DNA from: Escherichia phage vB_EcoS_AHP42
Length of the DNA: 46,847 nt
Sequence record: NC_024793.1
Reading direction: 5' to 3' (one strand)
Position numbers and translations under genes: made by a program. Below the pieces are notes generated by a model. The model did not search any database. It was not told the DNA's origin and worked only from the letters and a program-made list of their open reading frames with translations. The first letter of the stretch is position 1. Every line of letters starts with the position of its first letter. Below are positions 30,063 through 45,979 of this stretch, in pieces.

Positions 30063-30536
30063 TTACTCTTTAGCTTTTCGTGCTTCTTCTCTTTCTTTCT
30101 TAACCTTTCGCCATGATTTACGCTGCGGCTTGGTTGCTAACTCAGCTTCTGTAACAACTCGAAGCATCTGACGCTTCTTGCATCGCAGTGTTAGAGGCTT
30201 GCCGTTACCGTCGAACTGTAAATCAGGTCGGCAGAATGTAGCCCTGAACCCCTCGCCAGTTCGCTTATATCGATTATGCGCAAGCTGTGCGCCGCGAGCT
30301 GAAATCATTCCCCGCTTACACCATTCTTCTACAGCCTGGCGCGTAACCTTTAGCTGCTTAGCTAGATTGGCCTTGCTGCCGTAGAAGTCCAATACAATCT
30401 CAAGGCGCGCCCTTAATCCTGCTCTCACTTCATCCTTTAGTACATAGTAACCTGATGGACGCTTACGCGGCTTCTTGTCTTCTGTGCGAATTGTTCCGTT
30501 GTTACCATTAAGAGTACGCTTGTCAATTGAATCCAT
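30063..30536 (-). CDS. basic HTH DNA-binding protein (candidate transcription regulator)
   Basis: 157 aa, very basic, with HTH-like SKANLAKQLKVTRQAVEEWCKRGMIS; divergent from the helicase gene, with the dyad element between the two starts. Confidence 0.5.
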   Translation of the reverse strand: MDSIDKRTLNGNNGTIRTEDKKPRKRPSGYYVLKDEVRAGLRARLEIVLDFYGSKANLAKQLKVTRQAVEEWCKRGMISARGAQLAHNRYKRTGEGFRATFCRPDLQFDGNGKPLTLRCKKRQMLRVVTEAELATKPQRKSWRKVKKEREEARKAKE

Positions 30537-38348: not shown

Positions 38349-39938
38349 TTACCCCAACAGCCGTGGATTGATATATACCTTGTCACCAATCAGGCAGGTA
38401 TAGTTTTTATCATCAAGCATCGGCAATAAGTGGTCTTTAATTTTAGCCATAACACCAGCCTGTGACTCGAAAGGTCGAACCTTACGCGCAGCTTCATAAA
38501 GTGAACGCAAACCCACAACTCCTTTACTGTTCTTGCCTTGCTTGATAAGGATATCAATTAACTTGTTCATCTCAGCGTTATCGCCAGCATGACCAGCTGC
38601 GTTAGCTGAGGATAAGTAAGTCTTACTAAGTTCTCCAAACATCAACAAAGCCTCTTGCATGGTTTCCAGTTCAATCTCCCTGGACTTCTGCGGACTACCG
38701 CCATTTGGGTTAAACCAGTTACGGATAGTGTGAAGAACTGCAGCAATGCGAATTACCTGTTTATCCATTTTACCTAACGCGCCGCGCAGCATTGTGTGTG
38801 AATACTTACCGCCATCTGCAAGGTGTGGCTCCATTTCCTGTCGAGCACGGTTAAGGTGCTTCATTGCTGAGTTACTAATAGTCAACTTAACATCTTGCTC
38901 ACTCATAATTTCATGAACAAGACGGAAGTAATCAGCCTTCAACGCTCCGTCAATCGGCTCATATGTTGACTCGCCATTATCATCGACGAAAACACGCTCA
39001 CCAAGGAATGACTTTTCACGCACAAGCAAGAAACGTTCGGATACACCAATACCGCGAGCACCAGCATTCATGATTGCGACTATTGTTTCATCCTGCGCAA
39101 TTACAGAAATACACCCCATAGCAATAAAGCTCATGTTGTTCTCTGCGTTCGCACGCGCGATAGATACGTTACCAGCATCCCAGGCCTTAAGCACCAGTTC
39201 GCTGTTTGTTTTCTTTGTTCCATCACCATAGGTCATGCCCAGCAGTGAGTTGACGCTCGTCGCCTCATCCGAGATGACAGCGAAGCTACCCTGACGATGG
39301 TTAATGCGTGCCAGACCTTCGGGAGTAGTATCAGATACAGGGAATACGATGTCGCAAAGTTTCTCGAGCTTATCTTCCAGCTCCTCCTTCTCCTCAAACA
39401 AACCAGCCATCTCAGAAGGCGACTTCTCCTGCTTCATTTCTTTAGCCAGAGCCGACAGCTTGGCCATAATCTTTTTACGGTCACGCTTACGGAGCTCGTT
39501 TAGTCGCTCAGTCTCTGCAATCATTGGAGCCAGAGACAGCGAGTTAATGGCAGATTTACCAGTTGATGGAGGCTGGCTGGTCACTACATACAGTGATGTT
39601 GGTTGTTGAGTTCCGTGATACTCAACCGTAAAGCGACCTAACATAGCTGCCGAGATGCAACCAAGGAAGTGCATATAAGCAGATGATTCAGGAAACTGAA
39701 CAGAACGAGCAATGTTGCTTGATAGTTTGCCAACTACATCATAGTCGTTACCAAGCGAGATAACAGGATACTTGTCGCCAGTAGAATCAATCTCAACCGG
39801 AGCTTTCCAGAATGATGCGCTCTGGCGATAACCGTTCGCATTAATAGCAACACGTAAAGGAGGTAATCCATCCTGAGCGGCAACAGCCATTACTTGTTCA
39901 ACAGTCAATTTGTCATCATTAAAATCAAACATTATCAT
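38349..39938 (-). CDS. large conserved hypothetical protein (possible replication-associated; full-length paralog of 43251..43811)
   Basis: 529 aa; its N-terminal about 40 aa and C-terminal about 55 aa are paralogous to the 186-aa protein at 43251..43811. Confidence 0.55.
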   Translation of the reverse strand: MIMFDFNDDKLTVEQVMAVAAQDGLPPLRVAINANGYRQSASFWKAPVEIDSTGDKYPVISLGNDYDVVGKLSSNIARSVQFPESSAYMHFLGCISAAMLGRFTVEYHGTQQPTSLYVVTSQPPSTGKSAINSLSLAPMIAETERLNELRKRDRKKIMAKLSALAKEMKQEKSPSEMAGLFEEKEELEDKLEKLCDIVFPVSDTTPEGLARINHRQGSFAVISDEATSVNSLLGMTYGDGTKKTNSELVLKAWDAGNVSIARANAENNMSFIAMGCISVIAQDETIVAIMNAGARGIGVSERFLLVREKSFLGERVFVDDNGESTYEPIDGALKADYFRLVHEIMSEQDVKLTISNSAMKHLNRARQEMEPHLADGGKYSHTMLRGALGKMDKQVIRIAAVLHTIRNWFNPNGGSPQKSREIELETMQEALLMFGELSKTYLSSANAAGHAGDNAEMNKLIDILIKQGKNSKGVVGLRSLYEAARKVRPFESQAGVMAKIKDHLLPMLDDKNYTCLIGDKVYINPRLLG

Positions 39939-39972
39939 CTCTCTCTAAATGCCCCCGAAGGGGCTTGATTAT

Positions 39973-40152
39973 TTACTTGATACGAACTTCAATCATCTGA
40001 CCTTTATGAGGAAGATACAGCTTTGCGCGACCTCTAATCATTACGGTGATGATATTCTCCTTAAGGTCAACGTGAAGTACTTTGCGGAACAGAGGCCCCA
40101 TTTTTACCATCATGCCAGGTTTGATGTTTTCGATAGTAGTCATGATATCCAT
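39973..40152 (-). CDS. hypothetical small protein (59 aa)
   Basis: Not in the track; first ORF after a palindrome-associated promoter, with RBS AAGGG; followed by a UUCG hairpin before the 529-aa gene. Confidence 0.4.
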   Translation of the reverse strand: MDIMTTIENIKPGMMVKMGPLFRKVLHVDLKENIITVMIRGRAKLYLPHKGQMIEVRIK

Positions 40153-40190
40153 TTTTTAGCCCTTTTAATTTATTTCGTTTCGATGAAGAG

Positions 40191-40235
40191 AATATATCAA
40201 TTTTTGTTGTTAAGTTCTTTAGCAAAAAGTGCTAT
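40191..40235 (-). promoter_or_regulatory. dyad-associated promoter (minus strand)
   Basis: Minus strand: TAGCAC-ttt-TTGCTA, 22 nt, TATATT, then TCTTCATCGAAACGAAA; drives 39973..40152 and downstream genes. Confidence 0.55.
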
Positions 40236-40351
40236 TAAAGACCAACCAGACATTTGCCAACTACAACAGCGATTGCGCCCATGAAGCCAAAGAAACCAAA
40301 CTTAATTACTTGTTCCATTACCGCATCAACTGCTTTAGAGATGTTTTTCAT
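40235..40351 (-). CDS. small membrane protein (38 aa)
   Basis: From the internal ATG at 40351 with RBS AAGGTG; C-terminal hydrophobic segment FGFFGFMGAIAVVVGKCLVGL; the longer track ORF lacks an RBS. Confidence 0.4.
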   Translation of the reverse strand: MKNISKAVDAVMEQVIKFGFFGFMGAIAVVVGKCLVGL

Positions 40352-40388
40352 TTTGTTCACCTTAGTTTTTGTCTTCTTGATGGAAACA

Positions 40389-40434
40389 AATATACCCGCC
40401 GAAGCGGGTACTGTCATTAGCAAAAAGTGCTATT
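40389..40434 (-). promoter_or_regulatory. dyad-associated promoter (minus strand) with embedded UUCG hairpin
   Basis: Minus strand: TAGCAC-ttt-TTGCTA, a spacer containing hairpin ACCCGC-TTCG-GCGGGT, then TATATT and TTCCATCAAG. Confidence 0.5.
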
Positions 40435-40639
40435 TTTTTAAGTGCCCTGGCGCATAGCATTTTCCATCCTTCTTATGCAAAACCCACCCAGCATATTTAA
40501 GTTGCCTTGCACAATCAGAAAAGTTCTCGCCCGCAGCGTCCGTATAGTGTGGCATAAAATAAGAACCATCATCATTTGACTCAGTTGAGCACTTCTTACA
40601 GTCGCAATAAACAGCGATGGAATAACCTGAAACAATCAT
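40430..40639 (-). CDS. small cysteine-rich protein
   Basis: 69 aa with a CDCKKC cluster plus further Cys/His residues, a possible zinc-binding protein. Confidence 0.45.
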   Translation of the reverse strand: MIVSGYSIAVYCDCKKCSTESNDDGSYFMPHYTDAAGENFSDCARQLKYAGWVLHKKDGKCYAPGHLKK

Positions 40640-40989
40640 TTGTAAGCCGCCTCAAACTTATACATCCCATAACCCACATCAAAGCCAACTTCTTCATCAC
40701 GCGTCAACTGCCAGCCCTCGCCGTCTTCATCATAAATATACCCAGCGTTACGACCAAGTGATGAAGTCATTGATACCTGGTAACGCTTACCCTTACTGAA
40801 ACTCTTCTTGAGTGGTGACTTGTGGTTCACGAAAGTGCAAAGCAAAGTCTTGGTCTTGACGTAACGACCCCGGCCAGTGAGATTTTGCCATTTACCATGA
40901 ATCTTGATTTGCTCAATACCATCTTTAACGCGAGCTTTAAACATATTGTTATCTGAGCTGATCCAGTTTTTAGTGATAGTGGTAGCCAT
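40636..40989 (-). CDS. hypothetical protein
   Basis: 117 aa, coupled to the downstream Cys-rich gene by overlap. Confidence 0.45.
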   Translation of the reverse strand: MATTITKNWISSDNNMFKARVKDGIEQIKIHGKWQNLTGRGRYVKTKTLLCTFVNHKSPLKKSFSKGKRYQVSMTSSLGRNAGYIYDEDGEGWQLTRDEEVGFDVGYGMYKFEAAYK

Positions 40990-41014
40990 TACTATTTTCC
41001 TTTTTGGTTTGTTA

Positions 41015-41317
41015 TTAGTTAGCGTTATGACGTTCGATATAGTCGCGGATTGTTTCGCCTACGCTTTTAGCGGCACCAAAAGTGCCCTTTGCGTGGCGTG
41101 AATCGCGGTACGTCTGGAAGAATTTACGAGCGATGTTTGCGAACATTGAACCAGTCACGCGAGCATCACCGAAATTTGTTTCGATAGCGTTGCTAATGCC
41201 ATCCTTGAACTCATTTTCAGTCATGAACATCTCTGCCATGCCAGCAGTCTCGAAAAGGTTAGCTAATTCATTCATGTTGTTATGGTCTTCGGCTGTAAAC
41301 AGGTTCATGTTAATCAT
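41015..41317 (-). CDS. hypothetical protein
   Basis: 100 aa downstream of a minus-strand palindrome-associated promoter. Confidence 0.45.
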   Translation of the reverse strand: MINMNLFTAEDHNNMNELANLFETAGMAEMFMTENEFKDGISNAIETNFGDARVTGSMFANIARKFFQTYRDSRHAKGTFGAAKSVGETIRDYIERHNAN

Positions 41318-41351
41318 CTTCGTGATTCCTTAGTTTCGTTTCGATGAGATG

Positions 41352-41395
41352 AATATACAATAAAAGCCCCGAAGGGCTTTAGCAATTCGTGCTAT
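41352..41395 (-). promoter_or_regulatory. dyad-associated promoter (minus strand) with embedded hairpin
   Basis: Minus strand: TAGCAC-gaa-TTGCTA, a spacer containing AGCCC-TTCG-GGGCT, then TGtATATT and CATCTCATCGAAACGAAAC. Confidence 0.5.
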
Positions 41396-41544
41396 TTCTT
41401 TGCTGCTTTTGCAATTGCCTTCTGGACGATGTTGAAGCTCTCAATCAAATCTTCTTTGAAGTAGTCACCAACAGGCCAACCCTTACCGCTGTACTTGGCT
41501 ATGGTTTCTAGATCGTAATAGTTCAAGTCAGATGGCTTTAGCAT
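41392..41544 (-). CDS. hypothetical small protein (50 aa)
   Basis: Not in the track; RBS GAGGT; start abuts the upstream gene stop (TAAATG). Confidence 0.35.
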   Translation of the reverse strand: MLKPSDLNYYDLETIAKYSGKGWPVGDYFKEDLIESFNIVQKAIAKAAKK

Positions 41545-41784
41545 TTACTTAACCTCATCAAAAGTTGCAACACCAGGGATAAACATTCCAACCTTCCAGC
41601 CAGAGATAGCAATCCATCCAGAATCGTGCTTGTGCGGTCGCTCAGAGCCATTAATCACCCACTCATTCGGGATTGTTTTACCATTAATGATTAGAGGCTC
41701 AGCGTCGTATACGGAGCCTTTTATGAATGGTGTTAATACATTCTTATCCGTGCTTTGGATAACGTTGGTGCAGCGAATCTTCAT
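41545..41784 (-). CDS. hypothetical protein
   Basis: 79 aa, overlaps the upstream gene by 4 nt. Confidence 0.45.
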   Translation of the reverse strand: MKIRCTNVIQSTDKNVLTPFIKGSVYDAEPLIINGKTIPNEWVINGSERPHKHDSGWIAISGWKVGMFIPGVATFDEVK

Positions 41785-41999
41785 GCTACCACCTCAATTT
41801 CTTCATTACTAACAACAAACTTTTCACCTTGAAAGATTGCAAGAGTACCATCAACATATACATGATCCTTTAAACTCATCATGTAGAAGCCTTCAATCTC
41901 GTAAACTTCCACCTCCTCACCAATCTGATAGCCAAGTTCGGCAAGGCTCATTGAATCTTCGTCGTACCTAATTTCGTTGTTGATAATAATCGCTTTCAT
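41781..41999 (-). CDS. hypothetical protein
   Basis: 72 aa, first gene after the minus-strand promoter at 42028..42072; RBS GAGGAG. Confidence 0.45.
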   Translation of the reverse strand: MKAIIINNEIRYDEDSMSLAELGYQIGEEVEVYEIEGFYMMSLKDHVYVDGTLAIFQGEKFVVSNEEIEVVA

Positions 42000-42027
42000 G
42001 TTTCTTCTCCTCTCTGTTGATTAGCAA

Positions 42028-42072
42028 ACTATAGCCAGTCATGGTGGATTTGTCTTTAGCAAAAAGTGCTAT
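42028..42072 (-). promoter_or_regulatory. dyad-associated promoter (minus strand)
   Basis: Minus strand: TAGCAC-ttt-TTGCTA, 22 nt, TATAGT, then RBS GAGGAG for 41781..41999. Confidence 0.55.
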
Positions 42073-42345
42073 TCGTCAGATTTATGGATTGTTGCAGGCA
42101 TTGCGATGATTAGCATGACTATTACACATAAAGCAATATTTCATCGAGTGCAACAGGTTTATTGATTGTTGCCAGTTTGGCAATGATGGATGGATGGATT
42201 GAATGAAAGGAGGTCTGGATCAAATAGTTGGTTGGTTTTATCGCTCGCGGAGAGACTTCTTTTATATACGCGTAGTCCGCTGTCTACCGATTGTCGACCG
42301 TATCCACATTTACAATTTATACGCCTTGATATAATCCATATACAC

Positions 42346-42440
42346 TAAAATATCCTTATATATAAAGGACTTAGACTATTATTATTATTATATATAGTAT
42401 TATGTATATATAGCGTATCATCTGTACGCCACTATATAGG
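42346..42440. repeat. AT-rich repeat block B, homologous to 22651..22730
   Basis: TCCTTATATATAAAGGACTTAGACTATTATTATTATTATATAT...TGTATATATAGCGTA; flanked by TATACGC repeats, a (GATG)x3 run and the palindrome TTCCTACAcTGTAGGAA. Confidence 0.6.
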
Positions 42441-42630
42441 TTGGTTTGCTTAAATTTCTATTTTTATTCCTACACTGTAGGAATTGTACTACCTTGTAGG
42501 AAAATATAGGAGGATATAGCTAGAACCACCTCATCTATATGTAGACGCACGTAGACGCCTGTACACACCCAGCAACGATGCGGCATGCAGGGCAAAAAGC
42601 GTATCAATTTTAAAATAAACAAAAAATACA

Positions 42631-42659
42631 TTTATATACACGTAAATCTTTGCTATAGT
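42631..42659 (+). promoter_or_regulatory. putative early promoter without dyad (extended -10 TGcTATAGT, AT-rich UP-like region)
   Basis: TTTATA, 17 bp, TGC-TATAGT, followed by the conserved TTTCATCGAAACGAGG leader; AT-rich upstream; first promoter after the long noncoding region. Confidence 0.45.
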
Positions 42660-42708
42660 CATTTCATCGAAACGAGGCAACAAACAACAATCAACGAGAG
42701 GAATTATC

Positions 42709-43251
42709 ATGAGCAAAACGACCTTAGGTGAAGTAATTCGATTCATGGCTAAAAAGGCACTCCAGTCAGAAGATAAGGAGTTCAAGGTTCCAGTTCGAGA
42801 TATTTACCGACAAATTAGAGGTCATGATTACCCGGAAATGGAGACTGATGATAAAACCGGGGATATTATCAACCTTGGAGAGCGGAAGTTGAGTGAGTTA
42901 AAGAACTCATACATTCATAATACATTGTCACGAATGAGAGAGTTGCGTGAGGCTAAGTATATCGCCCGTTATCAATTCATCTGGATTGATGCGGATGGTG
43001 AAGATACCACGCCCCGCCAGTATGATGGCGATGGTGCTGATAAATACCTGCTAATCCATCTCACCGAGGGGGTTAAGGAGCCAAAAGCAAAACAAAGAGA
43101 GAAAGAAGAAAAGGAGCGGGCTGTTATTGAGAAGTTCAAATCTCGCTTGCTTAAGTTATCACCTAACGTACTGGATTTTGAAGGTGATGAGCTGACTGGC
43201 GCAGTTAAGGCTATCCGCATGTATCAAGAGATGATCAAGGAGTTTAACTAA
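42709..43251 (+). CDS. hypothetical early protein
   Basis: 180 aa, first gene after a long AT-rich regulatory region; promoter is extended -10 TGcTATAGT without the dyad. Confidence 0.5.
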   Translation: MSKTTLGEVIRFMAKKALQSEDKEFKVPVRDIYRQIRGHDYPEMETDDKTGDIINLGERKLSELKNSYIHNTLSRMRELREAKYIARYQFIWIDADGEDTTPRQYDGDGADKYLLIHLTEGVKEPKAKQREKEEKERAVIEKFKSRLLKLSPNVLDFEGDELTGAVKAIRMYQEMIKEFN

Positions 43252-43811
43252 TGTTTGATTTCGACGAAGATAAGTTAACTGATGACCAGGTGATGGAAGT
43301 CGCCAGGCAAGATAACCTGCCGCCACTTCGTGTGGCAATCAATACTAATGGATACCGCCAATCATTCAATTTCTGGCCCAGCGCCGAAGAGATGCTGTGC
43401 GTCAAGTTGAGCTACAAATACGGCGTAGTAGTGAGCAGGATTAGCCGCCAGGGCTGGAATGGAGTGGTTGGCATTCGATCTCTATACGAGGCAATCCGAA
43501 AGGTCCAGCCATTCGTCGGGCGCGAAGGGATTATGCATGACCTGACAAATAACATCATCCCAGAACTACAGGAGGCGGGAATTGTTTGCCTCATTGGCGA
43601 TAAGATTTATGTTCATCCGGCCCTGGTTGGGATGGATAAGGACGACGTGCAAAACTGGTGCAGCCAGTACCGATCCGACGCGCCACGCTCACACTACGTG
43701 CCACCGCAAACAACAATCCATGGCTATGATGCCGATGAGGTGGAGAAGGCCATACAGTTCTACCGGAAAGCGAAAGCTCTCCTGAATGGTGAATATAGCA
43801 CAAATTGCTAA
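43251..43811 (+). CDS. hypothetical protein, minimised paralog of the 529-aa protein
   Basis: N-terminus MFDFDEDKLTDDQVMEVARQDNLPPLRVAINTNGYRQS and C-terminal block GVVGIRSLYEAIRKVQPF...CLIGDKIYVHPALVG match the termini of 38349..39938; the central domain is absent. Confidence 0.55.
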   Translation: MFDFDEDKLTDDQVMEVARQDNLPPLRVAINTNGYRQSFNFWPSAEEMLCVKLSYKYGVVVSRISRQGWNGVVGIRSLYEAIRKVQPFVGREGIMHDLTNNIIPELQEAGIVCLIGDKIYVHPALVGMDKDDVQNWCSQYRSDAPRSHYVPPQTTIHGYDADEVEKAIQFYRKAKALLNGEYSTNC

Positions 43812-45552: not shown

Positions 45553-45792
45553 ATGTTCGGACTTACTCAACCACAATTTAATGCAGTTCGCGCCCAAGCT
45601 AAGAAACTTAACGAGGCGGTGGATAAGCTGACAAGCAAGCAGAAGCAGGATAATGACATCATGAAGGCGATTATCTGTGAGTTTCATAGCCCAGTCAGTA
45701 CAATCATCGAGAAGATGAAGTTTGTTTGGGTTGCAGGCTATCTTGCTGGTCGCGTAGGTAAGCGTGAAGATGGGGAGCAGATTTATGACTAA
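45553..45792 (+). CDS. hypothetical protein
   Basis: 79 aa, starts 2 nt after the upstream stop. Confidence 0.45.
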   Translation: MFGLTQPQFNAVRAQAKKLNEAVDKLTSKQKQDNDIMKAIICEFHSPVSTIIEKMKFVWVAGYLAGRVGKREDGEQIYD

Positions 45793-45979
45793 ATCACTAG
45801 GGAAAGTCAGATGTGTTGGGTCTTACAATGATAAGAAGTTCAAAACTGGTAAATCTTACAGCATTTTGTCATCACCCGCATATGGTTGGGTTAAATGTGA
45901 GTCAGAAGATGGGTGTATAGAGATGGTTAAAGATGGCAATGACATTGAGTTTGGTTACTTTGAGGTATTTTATGACTGA
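45785..45979 (+). CDS. hypothetical protein
   Basis: ATG at 45785 with upstream GGGGAG overlaps the upstream stop; the track GTG start at 45764 is less likely. Confidence 0.4.
   Translation: MTKSLGKVRCVGSYNDKKFKTGKSYSILSSPAYGWVKCESEDGCIEMVKDGNDIEFGYFEVFYD

Follow-up and report, generated by a model that had tools for sequence, protein, structure and literature searches.

Core and exchangeable small genes in a putative early operon of the T1-like phage vB_EcoS_AHP42

The genome of Escherichia phage vB_EcoS_AHP42 (NC_024793.1; its 46,847 nucleotides (nt) are hereafter called the window) contains a minus-strand cluster of small genes at 40235-41999. With moderate confidence, the whole is best explained as an early operon in which core genes are combined with exchangeable cargo genes, the cargo being directed at host or defence proteins. 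T1-like phages often contaminate laboratory cultures, are candidates for phage therapy and serve as standard phages in tests of bacterial immunity, and about half of their genes have no assignment. A megablast search with 39900-42400 placed AKS96 first (98% identity over 94% of the query), followed by Rogue1, AHS24, JK06, e4/1c and C119 at 91-98%. These matches identify the window, by sequence, as a Rogunavirus genome (Drexlerviridae, T1-like).

In the proposed arrangement, the Rogunavirus operon would run leftward on the minus strand from the divergent intergenic region at 42000-42708 to the gene of a DUF3987 helicase, and it would correspond in position and control elements to genes 1-7 of T1 and gp47-gp55 of Bas11. 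Host RNA polymerase would read it from stacked family-specific modules, each consisting of TAGCACnnnTTGCTAA centred near -43, a good -10 preceded by a -35 that is weak or absent, and a leader rich in A. The operon would be split by two hairpins in the spacers into the units A-B-C, D-E-F, G and H-helicase, the letters denoting the open reading frames (ORFs) of Table 1. By comparison with other phages, E is a core protein (with two predicted beta domains), B and C are conserved within the subfamily, and A, D, F, G and H are exchangeable cargo, with F a putative small structural-zinc protein and G a putative single-pass membrane peptide. The analogy with Gp54, whose gene lies in the corresponding operon of the related phage Bas11, makes early binding to host or defence proteins the most likely role of the cargo.

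Databases and the literature already contain both the ORFs and the repeat. What is new is the partition into core and cargo, the fold link between E and Gp54 together with their shared operon context, and, for F, the definition of a zinc site and of a large family with no fold match. The division between a helicase-linked core and exchangeable cargo, the fold of E and the F family make concrete experiments possible, and the practical value lies in annotation and in the choice of targets.

Gene content and slot exchange among relatives

The seven minus-strand ORFs of 38-117 amino acids (aa) listed by the first-pass annotation are all present, and the interval from G to the DUF3987 helicase holds an eighth, H, which makes the cluster one gene longer than described there. 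ORFs A to G correspond to AKS96 gp55-gp61, each deposited as 'hypothetical protein', the label they carry in near-identical phages of E. coli O157, and they are also annotated in Rogue1, AHS24, e4/1c and C119. Every one of them matches a PHROG of its own (E 1e-26 to 3e-68), all families without a functional label, and is preceded by a Shine-Dalgarno sequence (GGAG, GAGG or AAGG). ATGA overlaps occur at A/B and E/F, and the stop codon of B abuts the start codon of C (TAAATG).

The first-pass annotation saw no catalytic motif, and profile scans agree with it: Pfam, NCBIfam and PADLOC returned only sub-threshold noise for A to H (DUF7878, SepSecS, Reprolysin_2 and YqzM), with no family or PADLOC match for A, C, D or H. 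Sequence searches of the PDB with A, B, D, E, F and H gave no meaningful match, and the Rfam scan of 39800-42800 gave a single chance match to rsmX, far under the threshold. No homologue with a structural (virion) role was found, and the cluster is mentioned in neither the RAZR paper nor the daunorubicin preprint. The label 'chemotaxis protein' attached to D in UDF157lw was rejected, as no Pfam or NCBIfam match was obtained even at E 1.

The distribution of each protein was assessed as the number of phage records matched by tblastn. The helicase was found in 905 records and E in 822 (421 protein clusters, about 90% of the helicase-carrying record count), followed by F in 415, H in 175, B in 140, C in 131, D in 26, G in 19 and A, which occupies a variable slot, in only 13. 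B, which is translationally coupled to A through the ATGA overlap, is mostly 80-97% identical across the Rogunavirinae, and C is likewise conserved there at 60-100%. The homologues of H are 44-48% identical and belong to Klebsiella weberviruses.

Comparison of the slots among close relatives revealed that four to five of the genes (A, D, F and G, with the neighbouring H) occupy places that are exchanged, taken by other genes or left empty elsewhere. In phiEB49 the order is A, B, C, E and then the helicase. The phage e4/1c has no F, and the stop codon of E directly abuts the repeat. In C119 the F slot holds an unrelated, unannotated 64-aa ORF and the A slot two other ORFs; different small ORFs also occupy the A slot in AHS24 and UDF157lw. 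With F here, another ORF in C119 and nothing in e4/1c, the F slot is, from these sequences, a gene-exchange hotspot. Taken together, the record counts and the slot comparison describe the cluster, at the sequence level, as a mosaic in which E is the core gene of the whole family, B and C are conserved within the subfamily, and the other five genes are exchangeable cargo. The C119 ORF (MNETVRIYITKDSIYCKSIQHG...) lies at 1338-1532 on the minus strand and overlaps the stop codon of E by the same ATGA as F does.

That all seven genes are dispensable takeover, exclusion or anti-defence cargo is unlikely. They are all small and have no catalytic motif or family assignment, the A and F slots differ between relatives, and Gp54 of Bas11, from the same operon, is non-essential and recognised by an immune sensor. 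However, E adjoins the helicase and nearly matches its record count, and B and C are conserved across the subfamily, which is the behaviour of core genes. The first-pass annotation had regarded the entire cluster as a plausible reservoir of host-takeover, exclusion or anti-defence functions. This description fits A, D, F, G and H, with their variable slots and the Gp54 context, and does not fit the conserved E, B and C; by analogy, an anti-defence or takeover role is plausible for the cargo only.

Table 1. Features of the cluster and its flanks (window coordinates)
Feature	Position	Strand	Description
Divergent intergenic region	42000-42708		AT-rich, ~700 bp; several short inverted repeats
Promoter module P1	repeat 42056-42071; -10 42028-42033	-	repeat TAGCACTTTTTGCTAA, 22-nt spacer, -10 TATAGT; before A-B-C
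ORF A	41781-41999	-	72 aa, acidic; phrog_5684
ORF B	41545-41784	-	79 aa; phrog_4448
ORF C	41392-41544	-	50 aa; phrog_4548
Promoter module P2	41352-41394	-	repeat 41379-41394, hairpin 41363-41380, -10 TATATT 41352-41357; ends A-B-C, starts D-E-F
ORF D	41015-41317	-	100 aa; phrog_12926
ORF E	40636-40989	-	117 aa; phrog_2684
ORF F	40430-40639	-	69 aa, YCDCKKC; phrog_926
Promoter module P3	40389-40432	-	repeat 40417-40432, hairpin 40392-40411, -10 TATATT 40389-40394; before G
ORF G	40235-40351	-	38 aa; phrog_11986
Promoter module P4	40191-40234	-	repeat 40219-40234, -10 TATATT 40191-40196, leader CATCGAAACGAAA; before H
ORF H	39973-40152	-	59 aa; phrog_8121
DUF3987 helicase	38349-39938	-	T1 gp9 homologue, conserved downstream end of the operon; preceded by hairpin 39951-39964

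On the opposite strand, a 111-aa ORF at 39949-40284 (+), deposited as a coding sequence in UDF157lw, lies antisense to H, P4 and part of G and is most likely spurious.

The core protein E and its predicted barrel domain

Homologues of E include T1 gp7/ST7 (48% identity), Bas11 gp48 (42%) and phiEB49 gp4. In seven genera (Tunavirus, Webervirus, Henuseptimavirus, Tlsvirus, Warwickvirus, Vilniusvirus and Lindendrivevirus), the E homologue lies directly upstream of the helicase or no more than two short genes away; in SP-126 (Tlsvirus), an HNH endonuclease gene and a small ORF stand between the two. In all ten other phages inspected, which span these seven genera, it is at most about 900 bp upstream of the helicase, and the triad of E, helicase and YdbL is conserved. 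By these sequence comparisons, E is a core gene throughout the Drexlerviridae, and its fixed place beside the helicase suggests that it is a replication-associated partner of this enzyme. The GenBank label DUF2693 given to E in UDF157lw was also considered and dropped, no Pfam or NCBIfam match being found even at E 1.

A replication role for the whole cluster, with its members acting as accessory factors of the DUF3987 helicase (a loader, an origin binder or inhibitors of host replication proteins), is quite unlikely. In its favour, the genes point the same way as the helicase and are transcribed together with it, the triad is conserved, and a helicase paralogue without the ATPase core lies across the divergent region; however, the homologues of F reside in unrelated contexts (the early-left region of Stx phages and Ackermannviridae), A, D and G are confined to few phages, and phiEB49 manages with only A, B, C and E. 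The paralogue itself is a 186-aa protein (43251-43811, plus strand; phrog_7327). Its first ~50 residues are 69% identical to the N-terminus of the helicase and residues 66-127 are 50% identical to the C-terminus, and the last ~60 residues find no match there. It could regulate the helicase or compete with it.

The conserved part of E is its C-terminal 75 residues. Structure prediction gave a confident model of an all-beta protein with two domains, in which the C-terminal one (about residues 47-113) is predicted to form a six-stranded barrel with a prominent beta1-beta2 loop and structurally matches PDB 9AXB, which is Gp54 of Bas11. Gp54 is a non-essential protein that triggers the immunity protein CapRel-SJ46 (Zhang et al., Nature 2024, PMC11578894); its authors propose that it may inhibit another defence, and CapRel was not activated even by close Gp54 homologues (PMC11578894). 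In Bas11, gp54 stands in the operon behind its own copy of the repeat. The predicted model gives the core protein E the rare fold of a known immune trigger.

Sequence comparison of E with Gp54 gave 13% identity, an hhalign P of 0.085 and no BLAST match, and E had no PDB match. What is claimed is a resemblance of fold together with a shared genomic context, and homology is excluded from the claim. The two proteins also differ in that Gp54 is without the additional N-terminal beta domain of E, and in that E is a core gene, whereas the non-essential Gp54 occurs in 215 phage records; neither the window nor T1 gave a tblastn match to Gp54. The first-pass annotation had called this part of the genome the least characterisable, a judgement that does not hold for E, with its confident model and specific structural match, or for F, with a clear zinc-site signature.

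A Foldseek search of BFVD further showed that many uncharacterised proteins of 62-79 aa, nearly all from Drexlerviridae, share the barrel fold of E (target-normalised TM-score 0.57-0.77). Among these matches is a protein of 73 aa from phage tonn, probably gp42, whose gene separates the E homologue from the helicase.

B may be a distant paralogue of the C-terminal barrel of E, judging from a shared motif, K-x-x-C-T...F-x-K-G-x-x-Y, and from profile comparison. The hhalign alignment of B 3-30 with E 49-74 reached P 0.0098 over 26 columns, with a low database-calibrated probability. An iterated profile of the E C-terminal domain was run over 1760 ORFs from fetched Drexlerviridae loci and recruited the tonn gp37-like family (E 0.002) and then HazelMika gp49 (E 0.001), which is a true distant homologue of B (38% identity, BLAST E 6e-14). 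B itself appeared only at E 0.07, and hhalign detected no similarity between B and Gp54. In the other arm of the early region, a 71-aa ORF at 45764-45979 on the plus strand (KVRCVGSYNDKKFKTGKSYSI...) was matched by the iterated profile at E 0.0098 and may be a further barrel paralogue.

A wider and doubtful proposal can be built on these matches. The Gp54-like six-stranded barrels would constitute an expanded early superfamily of the Drexlerviridae, comprising the E C-terminal domain, B, the tonn gp37-like family, Gp54 and the 45764-45979 product. The founder E would be the core partner of the DUF3987 helicase and the single-domain copies diversifying decoys, or adaptors, for binding to proteins of the host or its immunity, while the Cro-like product of 30063-30536 would bind TAGCACnnnTTGCTAA as a class-II-type activator site and in this way control almost all transcription units. 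If this were true, CapRel and similar sensors would effectively target a fold that the phage cannot lose.

The cargo proteins F and G and the weight of the evidence

F is a cassette lying between the stop codon of E and the P3 repeat. Its very large family extends over phages and prophages, and only about 12 of the 415 phage records belong to Drexlerviridae. Homologues were found in Ackermannviridae, in Stx2 phages (VT2-Sakai orf7, also named VT2-Sap07), in phiV10 (p52) and in temperate phages of Klebsiella and Acinetobacter. A profile search with a five-sequence F alignment collected 112 clusters, and an exhaustive search raised the number to 1000 or more (clustered at 50% identity), almost all being stand-alone proteins of 60-80 aa.

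Alignment of 218 diverse members showed that C12 is conserved in 96%, C14 in 71% (with gaps in 20%) and C17 in 86% (with gaps in 11%), and that position 66 is His in 70% and Cys in 23%; G51 (98%), W52 (95%) and P64 (91%) are also highly conserved. C12, C14, C17 and H66 bear the clear sequence signature of a predicted structural zinc site, and the exchange of His and Cys at position 66 is as expected for such a site. The first-pass annotation had pointed to a CDCKKC cluster and further Cys/His residues in this protein. The pattern CxCxxC...(H/C) is indeed conserved, and the further residues C43, C61, H31 and H55 are not. Among zinc-finger folds (PHD, treble clef and zinc ribbon) and solved folds in general, searches found none that matches. 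F stands for a family with a predicted zinc site, no fold match and a size of at least 1000 clusters.

With the VT2-Sakai orf7 / phiV10 p52 family, which consists of small Cys-rich proteins from lambdoid phages, Ackermannviridae and further enterobacterial phages, F shares 31-47% identity over the full length and the signature YCDCxxC...GW...APGH. In contrast, the genes of that family are placed in other accessory regions: near ea22 in the early-left region of Stx phages, and near dCMP deaminase and baseplate genes in Ackermannviridae. DNA binding by F, as could be read from a fusion to HTH_17 (P0349), was rejected, for the fusion was present in one of ten long matches, which is too thin, and may reflect a merge of gene calls.

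G was described by the first-pass annotation as a 38-aa tail-anchored membrane peptide, and the sequence bears this out. A polar N-terminus is followed by a C-terminal hydrophobic helix, residues 18-38 having a mean Kyte-Doolittle hydropathy of 2.0, and the GenBank record of AKS96 carries TMHMM and Phobius calls; a single transmembrane helix at residues 18-38 is a plausible prediction. No characterised toxin of the membrane, holin or exclusion protein proved homologous to G, the only hit being a sub-threshold Pfam match to YqzM, and tblastn retrieved 19 records, all identical, and nothing else. Depending on the record, G is annotated with 38 aa, 41 aa (AHS24) or 60-62 aa from a TTG start. The 38-aa ATG start is preferred, because a TTG start would lie within the terminator hairpin and ahead of the -10 box that serves G, and because the ATG has an AAGGTG ribosome-binding site (RBS).

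It is very doubtful that G is a chance ORF, and no gene, in a spacer rich in promoters and terminators. Such an origin would suit its very short length, its invariance across the 19 records, which offers no substitution pattern, and the disagreement of annotators over its start (38, 41 or 60 aa). On the other side, the AAGGTG Shine-Dalgarno sequence is located 7 nt before the ATG, G has its own repeat and -10 at the standard distance of 81 nt, and its hydrophobic stretch measures 21 residues. Among five relatives, 40153-40640 contains five variable positions, all in ~160 nt of intergenic DNA and none in G (117 nt) or F, a pattern that is suggestive and has no statistical weight.

Several points weigh against an early operon of core and cargo genes. 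The cluster genes are known here from sequence alone, and their early timing is taken from position and from the analogy with T1. The likeness of E to Gp54 derives from a predicted model that sequence profiles do not support as homology (hhalign P 0.085), E is linked to the helicase by synteny only, and the Gp54 analogy brings no mechanism. In addition, the 100% identity of G in 19 of 19 records leaves zero substitutions for a dN/dS test of coding selection.

Repeat promoter modules and comparison with known systems

The sequence TAGCACnnnTTGCTAA occurs at 13 sites in the window (at most one mismatch) against 0.1 expected by chance, and all 13 sites are co-oriented with local transcription. 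The three stacked dyad promoters that the first-pass annotation assigned to the seven ORFs were recovered as the repeats of P1, P2 and P3; the first copy falls just outside 40235-41999. A fourth copy, that of P4, precedes H, and P4 probably also serves the DUF3987 helicase.

Alignment of the sites displayed a constant module of repeat, 20-22 nt spacer, TATAgT/TATATT, a leader close to CATCGAAACGAAA, RBS and ATG. At the cluster copies the -10 box (TATAGT or TATATT) follows the dyad by 21-22 nt, and the repeat precedes the ATG by 72, 77, 81 and 82 nt. The first triplet of the P2 repeat is the TAG stop codon of ORF C. Hairpins resembling intrinsic terminators are embedded in the spacers of P2 and P3, and the termination of one unit and the initiation of the next would therefore be packed into ~45 nt. 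A conserved transcribed leader near CATCGAAACGAAA is present 6-7 nt past the -10 at most repeat promoters (for example 22537, 32946, 34317, 40219 and 41379), and the spacer of many of them contains a short hairpin with a GGAUG loop; the paper on phage TLS (PMC11447400) describes neither.

By sequence, the dyad of the first-pass annotation is the 21-nt direct repeat already published for T1-like phages. The re-annotation of TLS described aaATAGCACnnnTTGnTAAAA, co-oriented with transcription and ~76 nt before start codons, reported it also in T1, Rtp and Rogue1, and left its role open between a stoperator, an enhancer site and an UP-like element (PMC11447400). The repeat here agrees with it in consensus (aaATAGCACnnnTTGnTAAAA, with the flanking A residues visible), orientation, intergenic position and distance to the ATG, and differs in that a -10 box always follows 20-22 nt further on, with a conserved leader at most sites. 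TTGCTA within the repeat is ruled out as a -35 element, since its 21-23 nt to the -10 are too far. From the geometry, with the repeat centred near -43 and the -10 and leader downstream, we infer a promoter-proximal element of the activator type or the UP type.

A speculative candidate for binding TAGCACnnnTTGCTAA is the product of 30063-30536 (minus strand), a protein of 157 aa in which Pfam gave a weak, sub-cutoff match (E 2.6e-5) to a Cro/YdaS-like helix-turn-helix and which occupies the position of T1 ST23, annotated as 'transcriptional regulator'. Just upstream of the first repeat promoter, the divergent intergenic region contains a 34-nt direct repeat (42077-42110 and 42154-42187; 76% identical, 77 nt apart), which, like the short inverted repeats there, may be an iteron-like or regulatory site. 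AKS96 has a 40-aa plus-strand ORF annotated in the same region.

At the equivalent place, T1 carries ST1-ST7 as its seven small genes, followed by an HNH gene and then by ST9 (the helicase) and ST10, and the minus-strand operon of Bas11 (Drexlerviridae) consists of gp55, gp54, gp53-gp50, a Dcm methylase, gp48, gp47 and the helicase gp46. The operons of T1 and of the Tlsvirus SP-126 include HNH genes, and those of Bas11, Vilniusvirus and others a Dcm methylase; this phage has neither. According to BLAST, E alone among the genes here has a homologue in T1 or Bas11. In other respects, T1 genes 1-7 and Bas11 gp47-gp55 resemble the present cluster in their place, flanked on one side by the divergent intergenic region and on the other by the helicase-YdbL pair beside the lysis genes, in strand logic, in the stacking of repeat promoters and in the presence of an E homologue. 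The cluster is ordinary and already annotated, a probable phage early accessory operon and no new kind of system.

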